Shown here: positions 1-11,026 of the stretch, in pieces
Layout of the letters: each line of letters opens with the position of its first letter
Position numbering within the stretch: position 1 is the first letter of the stretch
Position numbers and translations under genes: made by a program
Source of the DNA: a virus
Taxonomy: Duplodnaviria > Heunggongvirae > Uroviricota > Caudoviricetes
Strand: one strand, 5' to 3'
Length of the DNA: 11,026 nucleotides
IMG/VR virus record: IMGVR_UViG_2690316285_000015
Notes under the pieces: generated by a model
Database searches by the model: none
What the model was told of the DNA's origin: nothing
What the model saw: only the letters and a program-made list of their open reading frames with translations

Positions 1-207
1 TAAGTGATACTGGTTGTCTGGAGATTCAGGGGGCCAGTCTAGAGCATGAACGTTACAACGGTGAGGTAGTACCAAACGTTTACCCGAATCGATAACCTCA
101 CCTTTGAACGGGCTAATGAGAAGTTATCGCGGAATGGTATAGCTAATCGTATCCGTAAGGACATTACCATTGCTCAGGATGATTACATTACTAACCTCTT
201 CCCGAAG

Positions 208-1038
208 ATGCTGAAATGCGGTCACTGTGGGGGCAATATTGCAATTCACTATAATCATGTACGAACTAAGTATGTTATTTGTCGTAACAGGGAAGAAAAG
301 AAGATCTGCGATGCTAAATCTATCCAGTACATGAGAATTGAAAAGAACATTCTACAGCTTGTCAAAAATGTAGACTTCAATAAATTGATGATGGAAGGTA
401 AGTCGGATTCAGATTCATTGCTTGCATCATTGCGAGAAGAGTTAAGTACTTTACAGAAAGAGGCAGAAACCTATCAGGTTAAAATTAATGAACGTAAGGC
501 AGCAGGTAAGAAAGCCTCGTTACCATTAATGACGGGTTTAACTGAGGTACAGGATAGAATTGAAGAAATAGAATCTGAGATATTAAATTCAAAGAACATC
601 AAAGAAATCCCTGTATTTGATTTCGATATTAATAAAGTACTTGATCCATTGAATGTCGAGTTACGTGCAAAGTTACGGAAAGAAGTAAGATTAGTACTGA
701 AATCTGTTAAGTACTGGGTTTTTGAAAAGCGTATATTTGTACAGTTGGAATACTTCAATGATGTCCTATCCCATACGCTTGTGATTGATAACAAGCGGGG
801 CGGGGGTGAAGTACTACATGAGATCGTAATCTCTGAAACAAGCGGCGAGCGTGTCTACACTGTCAATGAAGAGGGCAAAACCGTTTTCATTGCCTCCGTT
901 ACATCTGGTACTGATATGTGGTCGCTTGCCATTAGCCGTACCAAAATACTTGATGATGTTGGATTGTATCTTAATCTTCTCAAGCGTGAAAAATTTGAGA
1001 TCATTGTTAATGAAGATATGATTGATTGGATGGATTAA
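208..1038 (+). CDS. Large serine recombinase, C-terminal region (zinc beta-ribbon plus coiled-coil); N-terminal catalytic part not intact in this window
   Basis: Translation begins ...LKCGHCGGNIAIHYNHVRTKYVICRNREEKKICDAKSIQYMRIEKNILQLV, matching the C-x2-C ... Y-x-C ... C pattern of the recombinase zinc beta-ribbon domain, followed by a charged coiled-coil-like stretch (LREELSTLQKEAETYQVKINERK...). The same frame is open back to 70 and encodes IDNLTFERANEKL, resembling the end of the recombinase domain, but TAG at 67-69 closes it and the only open frame upstream (frame 3, 3-92) ends at TAA 93-95. Confidence 0.65.
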   Translation: MLKCGHCGGNIAIHYNHVRTKYVICRNREEKKICDAKSIQYMRIEKNILQLVKNVDFNKLMMEGKSDSDSLLASLREELSTLQKEAETYQVKINERKAAGKKASLPLMTGLTEVQDRIEEIESEILNSKNIKEIPVFDFDINKVLDPLNVELRAKLRKEVRLVLKSVKYWVFEKRIFVQLEYFNDVLSHTLVIDNKRGGGEVLHEIVISETSGERVYTVNEEGKTVFIASVTSGTDMWSLAISRTKILDDVGLYLNLLKREKFEIIVNEDMIDWMD

Positions 1039-1333
1039 AAGCTAATGAGAATTTATGGTCTTGTAGAATGAATTATGCGAGTTAATATTTGAACAATATA
1101 TCTACGATGTCGAAATCTAACGGCATTGTAGATAGAGCAATAAAAGAGGGATTATGAATTTTGGATATAACTACGCACCCGATGGGTTTAAGATTTTCGT
1201 GCAAAATACAGCAAATCATTTATATCAGCGTGTGTTAGAATAGTCAAGGGTAAAATTAACTTTTTTGACTTTTCAACGTTAAACCAGTACCATAGCGTCA
1301 TTCATTAACGAATAGGAGCGATGAAACCATGAG

Positions 1334-1735
1334 ATGAATTCTAAAGAGAGGATTGCCAAAATGCGTAAGAAAGAAAATAAAGCAAAAAAAGAAAAATTCC
1401 GTCAATTTTTCCCTGAGAATTATGATATTGGGATCTCATTGAATGAAGAGAATCAATTAAGGCTTTTTTCAAAGCGGAATGATTCTCAAGATGAGAGCTT
1501 ATGCAAGTACGAATTTTCCAACAAAATTAAAGTTCAGTACATTTTTTTGCCGTATTCTTCTGAAATTCAAGTTATAACAGATGAGTTTCCGCTAACGGAG
1601 GCAGGCTGTCAGGAGTGTACTCAAGCTTTCAAACATCCAATATCAATGGAACTAATTGAAGAGATAAAAGAAGCAAAATGTTCAGTTACTGGACTTGTCA
1701 TTTATTCGAAACCTATACTAAAACTTATTAGCTAA
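1334..1735 (+). CDS. Hypothetical protein (133 aa; start could instead be ATG 1364)
   Basis: Open frame with lysine-rich N-terminus; GAGAGGA lies about 10 nt upstream of the alternative ATG at 1364; no recognisable domain. Confidence 0.4.
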   Translation: MNSKERIAKMRKKENKAKKEKFRQFFPENYDIGISLNEENQLRLFSKRNDSQDESLCKYEFSNKIKVQYIFLPYSSEIQVITDEFPLTEAGCQECTQAFKHPISMELIEEIKEAKCSVTGLVIYSKPILKLIS

Positions 1736-1811
1736 CACATCCAAATTGTTACGTTTTAAGTACTCCCTCACTAAATACTATAAAGTTGAATGTGAATGGG
1801 GGTACTTCAAA

Positions 1812-1985
1812 ATGGAATGGTTTACTAAATTACTTTACGAGATAGTAGGCTTTGTACTTTACATCTTTCTGATAATCCCAATATATATAGTGCTCATGTT
1901 TTTATCTATGATTTTAGTACTATTGCTTTCCCCATTAAAAATCAAATCGATAAATAAATACGTAGTAAGAAAAATGAAACGCTAA
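1812..1985 (+). CDS. Small hydrophobic membrane protein (57 aa from internal ATG; the ORF-track start at 1746 is TTG)
   Basis: GGGGG 9 nt upstream of ATG 1812; single long hydrophobic segment LYEIVGFVLYIFLIIPIYIVLMFLSMILVLLL followed by a basic tail; rho-independent terminator downstream. Confidence 0.4.
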   Translation: MEWFTKLLYEIVGFVLYIFLIIPIYIVLMFLSMILVLLLSPLKIKSINKYVVRKMKR

Positions 1986-2096
1986 AAGTTTTGGTGCTAT
2001 ACTAATAGTATCAGAACGATAATGCGTTTTGCCTTCCGCTCCAGCTTTGAACATAAATAATATAGCGACAATAAATTTCCTTTTTAATTAAGATTG

Positions 2097-2124
2097 CCTC
2101 TCTTGCGAGAGAGGTATCTTTTTA
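2097..2124 (+). terminator. Rho-independent terminator candidate
   Basis: Perfect 7-bp stem CCTCTCT / AGAGAGG (2097-2103 and 2108-2114) with 4-nt loop TGCG, followed by TATCTTTTTA. Confidence 0.55.
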
Positions 2125-2173
2125 ATTTGGATTTATAAATACAGTATACAAATACACCTATAAGGATATAGAA

Positions 2174-8967: not shown

Positions 8968-9249
8968 GCAACAAATTACAAGGTGAGCATTTCATCACAA
9001 TTGTTTTAATTAACGATATTTTAAATTATTTTACGTAATTGAAACAAAATCAGCCATATCGCTTGTTAATTGGTATTGAGACTTTGTAGGTGTTATCATG
9101 CAATTAAATCATTTGCATTGGTATCTCTTATGGAAAAATTGATATTGCTATTATTATTACCTTTAACAACAAGTGCAGCTATTCCAGACTTTAAATGCTG
9201 GGATATTCATAACGATTCATTTAGTACTGACATGAGTTTCTACGTTACA

Positions 9250-9475
9250 AGATATCTCGAACCGTAATTATATCCATCATCAAATGCTTCATTGGTTATT
9301 ACCAGTTCCCTGTAAAATTTCTNNNNNNNNNNNNNNNNNNNAGATATCTCGGTAAAATGCCGCCGCCTTATGGTGCATTTCATTATGAAACAGCACCTGA
9401 TGAGAAATTTTACAGGGAACTGGTAATAACCAATGAAGCATTTGATGATGGATATAATTACGGTTCGAGATATCT
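9250..9475. repeat. 73-bp perfect inverted repeat flanking an assembly gap
   Basis: Left arm 9250-9322 is the exact reverse complement of right arm 9403-9475; between them lie the N run and 61 bp of unique sequence (9342-9402). The palindromic octamer AGATATCT occurs at 9250, 9342 and 9468. Confidence 0.7.
9323..9341. other. Assembly gap (19 N)
   Basis: Run of n characters; true length and content unknown. Confidence 0.95.
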
Positions 9476-9669
9476 AAACAAAGAAGGAACTTTGTACGAT
9501 GATATTAAATGTAAGCGGCTTTGATACTCATGATTCATTGTATATAGCTTACAAAGTATATTAACCATTGCATTCAATGGGTCCCTCCATACTGGCGGTA
9601 CTATCGAGGGTTTTCGGCAGCGGGTTTAATCAATTGTGTGTGAACAAAATGATCATACCCGCACCGCAT

Positions 9670-10232
9670 TTAAAAAAGTACCACACCAATTTCATTAAAT
9701 TCACATTGGCAATTATATCTTACTGGACACTCGCATAATTTAAACACGGCGTAAGAGCCTTTAAGTTCTTCAGTTACGTACTTTTCCATAAACTCGATAT
9801 CATCTGGTTCACAAAAAAGATGAAATCCGACACCAAGATAATTACGCATTTTGTAGTTACACTGTCTTATAGCACTAATTTTATTTTTGTCAGCATTTAA
9901 GCCCCTAACTAATGGTACTACACCTTTAGTACATTTAAACTCAATAAAAATATAATCATCAGAGGGTGTGGATTTTTCACGCAGTATCAAATCTACTTTA
10001 GCAAGTTTACTATCAGGATAATCTATTGGATCGAGGTATATCGTAACTTCACGATGTAGCTCGTACTTCCTTTTTGAAGTTAGATAATGAGCAAATTCTA
10101 TTTGCAGCCACTTTTCCCAATCATTAGTTTCTTTTTTCACGAAAGAATATAGTCTTTTTTTTATCTCATCTTTCTTCAAAAATCCGTTCAGCAATTTTAC
10201 TAACAGAGAAAAATCATTGTTACGGTCTGACA
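9670..10232 (-). CDS. Putative PD-(D/E)xK-fold nuclease-like protein (187 aa from ATG at 10232; the ORF-track start at 10290 lacks an RBS)
   Basis: Spacing E46 ([13 protein letters not shown]) ... D81 (KVDLIL) ... E98-F-K100 (YIFIEFKC) fits the helix-E / beta-D / beta-ExK layout of restriction-endonuclease-like folds; AGGG upstream of ATG 10232; divergent from the small terminase gene with a 36-bp gap. Confidence 0.5.
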
Positions 10233-10268
10233 TTGTAAACCCTATAAATAAAATAAAAAGGAACAAAT

Positions 10269-10814
10269 ATGGATATCTCATTAAGGTCATTAGCGAGACA
10301 GTACGGATACGATGAATCTACAGTTCGAACTTGGGTAGAAAAGGGAATGCCGACAGACACTGATTCAAACGCAAGAAGTTGGATTGTAGATAATGTACTA
10401 AAGCCGTTGCGTGATACTAATACAAAAGAACAAATTGAACAAGAGCGTTTGAAGAAGCTTTCAGCAGAACGGCAGTTAGCAGAATTAGAATTAGCAGAAA
10501 AGAATGGGCTGGTGGTCAGTACTGAATATATAGAACAGGTACTAACGGAATATCTATTCCAGGTCAAAACAGCAGTGCGTGCAATACCATCAAAAACTTA
10601 TCTTGAATTATTTGCACAATCAGATGCAAAGGATTTACGCGATGTATTAAGAACGCATATTGATAAAACATTATACCAATTAGGCTCAATGGAATTTGAG
10701 TTACCCGATGACATGGAAGTAATAGAGGATGGAAACAAACAAGAAGAAATTAACGAGGATACTGAAGAAAGTACTACCGACGATACAACCGCCGAAGATA
10801 CAGAAAACGAGTGA
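10269..10814 (+). CDS. Terminase small subunit, lambda Nu1-like
   Basis: N-terminal [25 protein letters not shown] parallels the lambda Nu1 HTH region (QLADIFGASIRTIQNWQEQGMPV); coiled-coil middle; strongly acidic C-terminus; 181 aa, the same length as Nu1; AAGGAA 7 nt upstream; large terminase start follows. Confidence 0.7.
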
Positions 10815-10998
10815 GTGGATTAGTAATGGTGTAGTTAAATTTGTGGACGGGCCGAATATGGGCCTTGATTGGGTTCCGTTTAGTTTCCAAAAAGAACCAA
10901 TGGATATAGCTCAAGAGCGAAGTACTAAAAAGATTGTACTTCAATCTTGTTCCCAGCTTTTGAAAACTACAGTACTACAATCAATTGCATTTAACTGA
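10729..10998 (+). CDS. Terminase large subunit (gpA-like), N-terminal fragment; frame interrupted by in-frame TGA at 10996-10998
   Basis: TSEWISNG...[15 protein letters not shown]...KKIVLQS parallels the lambda gpA N-terminus (TAVEWADANYY...WETLPFQRAIMNAM...VVKSA). After the TGA the +1 frame continues [10 protein letters not shown], which still resembles gpA (EHKQRNTLIWLP). Confidence 0.5.
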
Positions 10999-11026
10999 AG
11001 TGGTCAACAAAAACTGGCCACCGAGT

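Follow-up and report, generated by a model that had tools for sequence, protein, structure and literature searches.

Hyper-abundant short words in bacterial and phage DNA

The iterated palindrome HIP1 (GCGATCGC) lies in genes as well as spacers, is lineage-wide and has been maintained over evolution, its function being unresolved (PMC5861425). The present analysis deals with a comparable excess of the hexamer AGTACT, built on the tetramer GTAC, in a stretch of DNA from a tailed phage (IMG/VR record IMGVR_UViG_2690316285_000015). This whole stretch of 11,026 bases, referred to below as the window, is a remnant of a temperate phage, cut by the insertion sequences IS2 and IS911. The family to which the phage belongs is of the siphovirus type, has a low GC content (36-42%) and is found in Enterobacteriaceae. 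As with HIP1 and the alternate cyanobacterial iterated palindromes, the excess of AGTACT is many-fold, scattered over all codon phases and spacers and found throughout a lineage, and the excess of its component AGTAC belongs to the known class of lineage-specific hyper-abundant short words. There are differences, however. AGTACT and AGTAC are AT-rich words of six and five letters in phage genomes while HIP1 is a word of cellular chromosomes, the excess is 3-15-fold as against 15-300-fold for HIP1, no cognate methyltransferase was found in the element, the two halves of AGTACT are independent of each other and its carriers purge nearly all other palindromes.

Other described systems resemble this one in part. 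Phages are expected to lose short palindromes, since restriction enzymes cut them, and the genomes with the AGTACT excess do display such restriction-site avoidance, being without 27-32 of the 64 palindromic hexamers and having GCGC at 0.00-0.04 of expectation; AGTACT is nevertheless enriched in them (8-fold) instead of depleted, though other enterobacterial phages avoid it. Like a Karlin-type genomic signature, the bias is genome-wide, uniform over core genes, absent from genes that are probably recent acquisitions and part of a whole profile that is shared with other genomes (r ~0.8 with the jumbo phages GAP32 and 121Q). Such signatures are usually ascribed to the replication or repair machinery or to the host, whereas here the carriers share no evident machinery or ancestry and the host is without the signature. 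Chi, DNA uptake sequences and the FtsK-orienting polar sequences (KOPS) also occur in many dispersed copies, and as with these the effect of AGTAC would depend on density, but they are strand-polar words of 7-12 nucleotides (nt) on host chromosomes, while AGTAC has 5 nt, is strand-symmetric and stands at 0.4-1 of expectation in host DNA. The stoperators of cluster A mycobacteriophages are dispersed repressor sites, dozens per temperate genome, which are asymmetric, 13-14 bp long, oriented with transcription and located in short intergenic gaps. The phages described here likewise have dozens of copies of one word over a temperate phage genome; their AGTAC(T) sites differ in being 5-6 bp long, mostly intragenic and unoriented. 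The full-text literature searched, which covered HIP1, restriction avoidance, the genome papers of phages CBB and RaK2, SlmA, giant-virus methylation and a halovirus paper, did not yield any mention of phages enriched for AGTACT or GTAC.

Excess of AGTACT in the window

The window (36.7% G+C, with one run of 19 N at 9323-9341) contains 33 copies of AGTACT and 105 of GTAC, in close agreement with the original prediction, which had been made from the letters alone and had put these numbers at about 32 and about 100. No other hexamer of the window reaches the count of AGTACT, the runners-up being AAGTAC (25) and AAAGAA (23). With independent bases 3.6 copies of AGTACT and 36.6 of GTAC are expected, as had also been estimated (about 4 and 35-40), and a first-order Markov model gives 3.0 copies of AGTACT. 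The excess of the hexamer is therefore about 10-fold, and 200 dinucleotide-preserving shuffles of the window yielded 3.03±1.88 copies with a maximum of 8.

Within open reading frames (ORFs) there are 27 AGTACT sites, and 85 GTAC sites where 53±5 are expected. Shuffling synonymous codons within each gene leaves 8.0±2.5 AGTACT, shuffling them with codons pooled over genes leaves 6.1±2.3 and shuffling codon order leaves 3.4±1.8, and in none of these three types was the number of 27 reached by any of 2000 shuffles. The sites are distributed over the codon phases as 8/7/12 with six further sites in intergenic DNA, which bears out the earlier claim that all three phases and the spacers are involved. 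In the intact copy of the element named L003 the density of sites is the same in intergenic and coding DNA, at ~3.2 per kb. As the shuffles fail to reach the observed count, the excess is real and lies at the level of the DNA; it acts on DNA and not via codon usage or a protein repeat, as had been proposed. The prediction had named as its refutation the loss of the excess once codon usage and dinucleotide bias were controlled, and under such control the shuffles give only 3.0-8.0 copies.

The possibility that the excess is a passive by-product of codon usage, amino-acid composition, dinucleotide bias or restriction-site avoidance has to be weighed here, as the excess is indeed partly compositional. 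An order-3 Markov model predicts 17.6 AGTACT in the window, GTA, TAC, ACT, CTG and CAG are favoured codons, and amino-acid order adds ~2.4-fold (from 3.4 to 8.0 in the shuffles above). The synonymous shuffles nevertheless fall far below 27, and this also holds for constrained synonymous shuffles in which 33 avoided palindromes, GCGC, CTAG and CCWGG were all forbidden and GAC/GTC/GAG/CTC/ACA/TGT/CAC/GTG were limited to their observed counts or fewer. These gave 4-10 AGTACT (27 observed) and 46-58 GTAC (85 observed). In addition, intergenic DNA is equally enriched, and the phages FelixO1, RB49 and rV5, which avoid palindromes just as strongly, have AGTACT at 0-0.4 of expectation. A by-product of this kind is consequently regarded as highly unlikely.

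Five of the sites lie in the serine recombinase ORF (445-450, 636-641, 693-698, 710-715 and 810-815). One is found in terS (10518-10523), one in the overlap of terS and terL (10770-10775) and two in terL (10921-10926 and 10971-10976). The sites at 4084-4089, 4249-4254, 5773-5778 and 8917-8922 are intergenic, as are two sites that are associated with hairpins on the plus strand. The first of these (3277-3282) is within a hairpin at 3264-3287, with a 9-bp stem and a 6-nt loop, which holds CCAGTACTGG, and the second (8950-8955) is in the loop of a hairpin at 8935-8965 with a 10-bp stem and the 11-nt loop GGGTAAGTACT. Both hairpins had been noticed previously, at 3266-3285 and 8945-8955. The other sites are located at 1759-1764, 1916-1921, 2239-2244, 2307-2312, 3821-3826, 6458-6463, 7287-7292, 7388-7393, 7563-7568, 7586-7591, 7761-7766, 7832-7837, 7867-7872, 7938-7943, 8121-8126, 8263-8268, 8556-8561 and 9223-9228. 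With the 29 positions listed in the prediction, 19 are exact and ten were shifted by 1-11 bases, among them 6459 (for 6458), 7561 (7563), 7587 (7586), 7940 (7938), 8548 (8556), 8949 (8950), 9222 (9223), 10781 (10770) and 10972 (10971), while the sites at 7388, 7832, 7867 and 8263 had been overlooked.

Anatomy of the word bias

The structure of the bias was determined in a family pool of 27 non-redundant loci (560 kb). In this pool AGTACT stands at 8.2-8.4 times its first-order expectation, AGTAC/GTACT at 4.5 times and GTAC at 2.5 times, and AGTAC on either strand is enriched 3-6.6-fold in every family member. A fourth-order Markov model of the window predicts 33.2 copies of AGTACT against the 33 observed, so the word enriched in the first place is AGTAC/GTACT rather than the whole palindrome. 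The bases on either side of GTAC are near-independent, with a pooled odds ratio of 1.29 (0.28-3.4 per locus), and the product of the probabilities of A on the left (0.545) and T on the right (0.536) is 0.292 where 0.308 is observed. AGTACT results where two such half-words, each independent of the other, share the palindromic core GTAC. The two strands are used symmetrically (AGTACV 1158, BGTACT 1114).

Nearly all other G/C-containing palindromic hexamers are found at 0.03-0.3 of expectation in the family, examples being GGGCCC (0.03), CCTAGG (0.05), GAGCTC (0.06), CTGCAG (0.08), CGTACG (0.10) and GGTACC (0.15). This agrees with the earlier remark that an enriched palindrome is unexpected against a background of palindrome depletion. 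Since CGTACG and GGTACC are among the depleted words, it is not GTAC itself that is favoured but A-GTAC-T. The tetramer GCGC occurs 25 times in the 560 kb (0.04-0.09 of expectation) and is missing from the window, and GAC/GTC is reduced to ~0.6 in the carriers (family loci, GAP32 and 121Q).

The sites are scattered roughly at random, with near-exponential spacing (mean 364 bp, 2.7 per kb) and no periodicity save for one conserved pair 23 bp apart. They are about as dense in spacers as in genes, whether early, packaging, head or tail, but the HNH genes, several accessory ORFs and the gene of an OLD-family nuclease have few or none; these AGTACT-poor genes are probably recent acquisitions. The logo of the site is flat outside ±1, where C (0.34) and A (0.37) are favoured on the 5′ side and G is disfavoured (0.09, background 0.20). 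The flat logo and the aperiodic spacing led to the rejection of repeat elements of the REP or MITE type and of tandem or protein repeats as the source of the word.

The six bases of AGTACT are identical to the core of the binding site of the nucleoid-occlusion factor SlmA (GTGAGTACTCAC), and it could be supposed that the sites bind SlmA, the phage titrating or activating it and thereby blocking host division. Enterobacterales possess SlmA, which is not known from Pseudomonas, and this distribution would fit the contrast with Pseudomonas phage PA5oct discussed below. AGTACT matches positions 4-9 of the 12-bp SlmA-binding sequence (SBS), in which G1 and T2 (and A11 and C12) are strongly needed around the AGYRCT core (PMC3020112). 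Beside the phage sites, however, these outer GT/AC bases are under-represented, upstream GTG being at 0.55 and GTA at 0.76 of background, with two full SBS in the 560 kb and the flank accompanying 0 of the 164 half-sites of 121Q. The most disfavoured base at -1 is G, and other enterobacterial phages avoid AGTACT. A role of SlmA is thus very improbable.

Several further candidates were considered and discarded. A G-to-T hot spot at GAC feeding GTAC does not fit, as all NGAC words are equally depleted and GTAC alone is enriched. "TA-step insulation", or avoidance of -10-like hexamers, was rejected with other NTAN words and the TANNNT class at ~1 in GAP32 and 121Q, and a link with expression level was rejected with the major head gene of GAP32 being among its AGTACT-poorest genes. 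Avoidance of ultraviolet-induced dimers, gyrase sites, LexA boxes and primase sites were set aside on general knowledge, either because the predicted words (TGTACA, GRYC and CTGT-N8-ACAG) are a mismatch or because the primases of the two phage groups concerned differ.

Distribution in the phage family and its hosts

The family survey comprised 65 IMG/VR relatives with large terminase proteins (TerL) 60-100% identical, together with nine genomes from other genera. In all but 4 of the 65 loci AGTACT ranks first or second among the over-represented hexamers, and in most it is the top one, its excess being 3-15-fold and that of GTAC 1.8-3.6-fold. The family is spread over ~10 enterobacterial genera, and the same bias is present in prophages of Buttiauxella, Pluralibacter, Enterobacter, Phytobacter, Pseudescherichia, Kluyvera, Scandinavium and Rahnella. 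Intact copies of the Shigella type have 61-71 AGTACT per 18-20.5 kb where 5-6 are expected. The excess is a trait of the whole phage lineage.

A host-wide compositional signature of the bacterial chromosome had been among the candidate explanations of the prediction, and it finds no support in the host DNA. The E. coli flanks of the prophage contain 1 AGTACT (1.2 expected) and 34 GTAC (32 expected), a lambdoid prophage in the same genome contains 1 AGTACT (2.4 expected) and in a pool of 24 kb of host DNA AGTACT stands at 0.42 and GTAC at 0.99 of expectation. Loci spanning the junction have 0-1 AGTACT per 2 kb on the host side, where G+C is 50-56%, and 4-10 from the exact point at which it falls to 32-40%. 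A signature of the host is thereby refuted for E. coli and can be given next to no credence in general. Low GC alone was likewise rejected as the cause; T4, T5, the left arm of phage DCP80 and PA5oct are of similar GC and lack the excess.

Comparison with jumbo phages and other phages

IMG/VR was scanned for three AGTACT within ~80 bases. The matches were mostly tandem or protein repeats, but carriers of the scattered type were also recovered, three of them being members of the family. Two other scattered-type carriers are L151, a fragment which shares 89% identity with Erwinia phage Kaldavass and 75% with Cronobacter phage GAP32, and L116, which is presumably Klebsiella phage RaK2. In the GAP32 segment analysed (150-200 kb) AGTACT occurs 105 times against 15.2 expected (6.9-fold) and CAGTAC is enriched 5.7-fold; GCGC is missing (in 50 kb), as are 29 of the 64 palindromic hexamers. 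Phage 121Q (150-175 kb) has 82 AGTACT against 7.0 expected (11.7-fold) and CAGTAC at 11.8-fold, with GCGC missing (in 25 kb) along with 27 of the 64 palindromic hexamers, and in the RaK2 fragment AGTACT is enriched 25-fold. In contrast, PA5oct (L218, 100-130 kb), a Pseudomonas relative of the jumbo phages, has 1 AGTACT where 8.8 are expected (0.11-fold). PA5oct has scattered copies of CTGCAG (14, 2.8 expected; 5.1-fold), with TGCA at 1.9-fold and CCGG at 2.6-fold, a choice of words that hints at host-clade-specific "favourite" palindromes.

Among other phages, AGTACT is at 1.4 times expectation in T4, 0.7 in T5 and 0.8 in DCP80, and is avoided in FelixO1 (0.39), rV5 (0, 6.7 expected) and RB49 (0, 4.3 expected). 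GCGC is at 0.5-0.9 in T4, T5, FelixO1, rV5, RB49 and PA5oct. As FelixO1, rV5 and RB49 avoid palindromes as strongly as the carriers without having the AGTACT excess, the excess is no general consequence of palindrome avoidance. The avoidance of AGTACT by these three phages and PA5oct also suggests that AGTACT-specific restriction probably exists in these host pools, in which case the carriers either pay a cost or are protected. The signature is shared by two unrelated groups of Enterobacterales phages, while other phages of the same hosts are without it.

With regard to DCP80 (L094, PQ671644, 1-50 kb), the record of this Escherichia phage looks chimeric, a lambda-type terminase and a siphovirus-like left arm of ~25 kb being joined to T4-like genes; the T4-like part has motA and also rIIA twice in opposite orientations.

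The likeness of the family to the jumbo phages extends beyond AGTAC. Its residual 4-mer profile correlates with those of GAP32 and 121Q at r=0.81 (0.80 without words containing GTA or TAC), as compared with 0.61 for T5, 0.50 for RB49, 0.41 for T4, 0.38 for E. coli and 0.28 for FelixO1 (overall range 0.26-0.61), although these are Pearson correlations, which a few extreme words such as GCGC may drive. The value of ~0.8 exceeds that between GAP32 and 121Q themselves at the 5-mer level (0.53). It could be argued that the same machinery handles the DNA of the family and of the RaK2-like jumbo phages, the family being satellite-like or hitch-hiking and the AGTAC richness and GCGC absence being self-marks of the helper. 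Infection by a jumbo phage might, for instance, lead to the temperate element being replicated, spared or mobilised. Besides the profile, this is favoured by the absence of GCGC, found only in the family and GAP32/121Q among the genomes compared, by the lack of recognisable replication or repressor genes in the early region of the Shigella type, and by a 120-amino acid (aa) lipoprotein (7725-8087) in common with the 349-kb jumbo phage EJP2. However, the family has its own full virion, lysis and integration module, unlike known satellites. There is also no sign of a helper-type promoter: the T4-type late-promoter word TATAAATA does occur 19 bp upstream of the terS start in the window (10243-10250) and in L003, but it is not enriched overall and this copy is absent from the relative in E. 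coli ESBLEC_MG48, and T4-type late promoters were therefore rejected. Shared machinery is accordingly judged improbable.

Maintenance and possible origin of the bias

At 60-75% local identity between relatives, 0.39 of AGTACT sites are retained as compared to 0.17 for all hexamers, and at 92-97% identity the values are 0.93 and 0.77. Individual sites are not fixed, since in nine close relatives 38 of 82 AGTACT positions are variable. A parsimony reading of these gives 4-5 gains of sites against 5-6 losses, whereas neutral decay would, from the abundance of one-letter neighbours, yield ~1 gain per 5 losses. This is suggestive of a density held at equilibrium by turnover and not by fixed sites. 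At positions 3098/3106 of L003 there is AGTATT...AGTACT where L006 has AGTACT...AATACT, the site seemingly having "moved" by 8 bp relative to L006/L008, which may be an example of compensatory turnover.

The explanation that is tentatively favoured is selection for a dense recognition word. It would underlie an actively maintained word bias at the DNA level, specific to the lineage, of which the AGTACT excess is the most conspicuous manifestation. Selection would keep the genome-wide density of the short word AGTAC high, and a factor acting on DNA would read the half-sites singly. This factor could be an enzyme that modifies specific sites, or a protein whose binding serves to mark or protect phage DNA. 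The same pressure would act on the unrelated RaK2/GAP32/121Q jumbo phages and not on other enterobacterial phages. Selection is favoured because of the likely cost of the sites under AGTACT restriction, their above-background conservation and the convergence of the two phage groups, and the paucity of sites in the HNH and OLD-nuclease genes is in keeping with pressure over a long time.

A number of points weigh against selection of this kind. The gain and loss counts above are small (P ~0.07), and the per-base conservation footprint is modest, with some control words behaving alike. The similarity of the whole 4-mer profile to GAP32 and 121Q could reflect a shared mutational regime and not one selected word. 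No plausible DNA-acting protein common to the family and the jumbo phages emerged from a tblastn search of unassigned family ORFs against INPHARED; the sole shared protein is the lipoprotein mentioned, 37% identical to its EJP2 homolog. A co-resident methyltransferase had been suggested, but no methyltransferase or known modification gene was identified with Pfam, PHROGs, NCBIfam, PADLOC or RefSeq annotation in the window, in L003 and the other intact copies or in the complete 35.6-kb relative, the MG48 prophage, a result that covers known families encoded by the element as distinct from host-encoded or novel enzymes. Finally, a context-specific mutation or repair bias would likewise be expected to leave coding and non-coding DNA with the same density of sites and the half-sites independent of each other.

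Such a bias is the main rival explanation, possible though on the whole doubtful. AGTAC would arise from mutation that depends on context or from skewed mismatch repair, the sites themselves not being selected, in a manner similar to the methyltransferase-linked repair model proposed for HIP1 or to the very-short-patch (VSP) repair of E. coli. In addition to the density, half-sites and common 4-mer signature already described, it is in keeping with the strand symmetry and with the manner in which the enrichment builds up in steps over maximal-order expectation (TAC 1.5-fold, GTAC 1.5-fold, AGTAC 1.3-fold). The one-letter variants of AGTACT are also enriched 2.2-3.7-fold at outer positions compared to 0.7-1.9-fold at inner ones, and for HIP1 too the outer variants were reportedly found by Elhai in 2015 to be the next most enriched. 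Repair of T:G to C:G should, however, drain the transition neighbours, none of which is depleted (GTAT/ATAC 0.95, AGTATT/AATACT 1.15), and VSP-like T:G repair was rejected on this account. The host chromosome, the lambdoid prophage, T5 and others are in the same cells without the bias, so that a host repair pathway alone is insufficient. As to the phages, no methyltransferase or Vsr-like gene was found in the element and no shared phage enzyme is evident, the jumbo phages using their own polymerase and the family encoding no replication genes.

An extension of the selection hypothesis, which is speculative and rather unlikely as a whole, is that AGTAC is a positive "self" word. A marking or reading system would gain from dense half-sites, and this would have led to the convergence, possibly via interaction in the same cell. 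The system might be a new kind of site-specific modification or a binding protein with a protective role, or AGTAC might be a signal by which a conserved enterobacterial nuclease is halted or diverted. The Pseudomonas relative PA5oct would use another word, CTGCAG.

Putative nuclease gene, CTAG and other words

A further check proposed in the prediction was for a gene of restriction-type specificity. One was found just upstream of terS, but it tracks the absence of CTAG and not the excess of AGTACT. This ORF (9670-10233, minus strand) codes for a restriction-endonuclease-like protein of 187 aa with a predicted PD-(D/E)XK fold, in which the catalytic residues are present; E46, D81 and E98-x-K100 are invariant and there is a CxC...CxC cluster. 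The gene is solitary, with no methyltransferase gene nearby, and no significant match to the protein was obtained from PDB with Foldseek.

The phage part of the window (45-10992) has no CTAG where 31±5.5 are expected, and the intact copies L003, L006 and L008 have none where ~65 are expected. Among relatives CTAG ranges from 0 to normal (82, 77 expected) and can be patchy within one prophage, 2-kb bins with 0 lying beside bins with 11, which suggests mosaic histories. The eleven IMG/VR carriers of the nuclease ORF have 0-4 CTAG against 37-71 expected or 7-11 against 44-50, although one of them (L027, a 3.5-kb locus) is too short to judge. The ORF was not found in relatives with normal CTAG, nor was it detected in some of the CTAG-free ones. 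This pattern, which is confounded by relatedness, suggests that the loss of CTAG is self-avoidance of the target of the phage's own nuclease.

Two other words were seen to be over-represented. GGTAAGT occurs 8 times in the window (0.7 expected), at 398, 3157, 4167, 6098, 6785, 8231, 8306 and 8947, all on the plus strand with the complement found once, and its family-wide excess is only ~2-fold; GGTAAG is the BREX methylation motif of E. coli HS. The E. coli Chi octamer GCTGGTGG is present 33 times in the family pool (6.4 expected), on both strands, and GAP32, T5 and DCP80 likewise have an excess of the Chi sub-words CTGGT and TGGTG.

Gene content of the window

The prophage is truncated on the left by an IS2 terminal sequence (1-44), which holds the sole CTAG of the window (39-42), and on the right by an IS911 terminal sequence (10993-11026). 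No sequence closely matching the interior was found among complete E. coli genomes, INPHARED phages and PLSDB plasmids. Exact-protein look-ups did locate the element in many NCBI and SRA assemblies, including HE616528.1, CP026802.1 and CP061367.1, the first of which is Shigella sonnei 53G. Near-identical copies number in the hundreds in S. sonnei and E. coli assemblies (467-569 indexed blocks). In those assemblies it adjoins yeaG and is riddled with insertion sequences, and the intact copies L003, L006 and L008 were also found. The window is 99.83% identical to L003. A complete relative is present as the 35.6-kb prophage of E. coli ESBLEC_MG48 (L001/L019; NZ_CM132639, 3122404-3158021), while the nearest cultured phage is 36% identical by TerL.

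A large serine recombinase, the prophage integrase, is represented at 208-1038 (plus strand) by the C-terminal 276 of its 644 aa, and Resolvase, Recombinase and Zn_ribbon_recom domains were found in the recombinase of the intact copies. It is followed by an early region (1334-9267) with ~9 kb of small ORFs belonging to no known families. This includes two HNH homing-endonuclease genes (2706-3260 and 4307-5050), both without AGTACT, and the predicted lipoprotein gene at 7725-8087 (plus strand), whose 120-aa product has a signal peptide followed by Cys. Neither repressor nor replication genes were recognisable in the early regions of the window or of L001 (4186-14409), the sole replication-like candidate of the MG48 prophage being an SF2-helicase-like protein of 650 aa in its early region. 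Free-standing homing endonucleases of the HNH and GIY-YIG (SegE-like) types are unusually many in these two early regions for a temperate phage.

The run of N mentioned above is an assembly gap that breaks a 100-aa ORF, intact in L003. The packaging genes are located at the right end, with terS (10269-10814, plus strand) encoding a Nu1-like terminase small subunit and terL (10729-10992, plus strand) the N-terminal part of a gpA-type large terminase, cut by IS911. Downstream in the intact copies these are followed in order by portal, protease-capsid fusion, siphovirus-type tail and lysis genes.

Significance of the AGTACT signature

As a sensitive marker, the signature can be used to recognise this poorly annotated prophage family, and what remains of it, in the genomes of Shigella and E. 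coli, and within such prophages it tells old core DNA from recent gene acquisitions. These phages purge palindromes to an extreme, yet retain one palindrome-forming word at 5-15 times its expectation despite the hundreds of potential ScaI-type cut sites that it brings. This implies a benefit, or else a mutational process with sequence specificity, that has so far escaped recognition. Enrichment of the word is found both in jumbo phages that can be cultivated (GAP32, 121Q and RaK2) and in prophages of E. coli and its relatives that can be induced, which makes the matter accessible to experiment.

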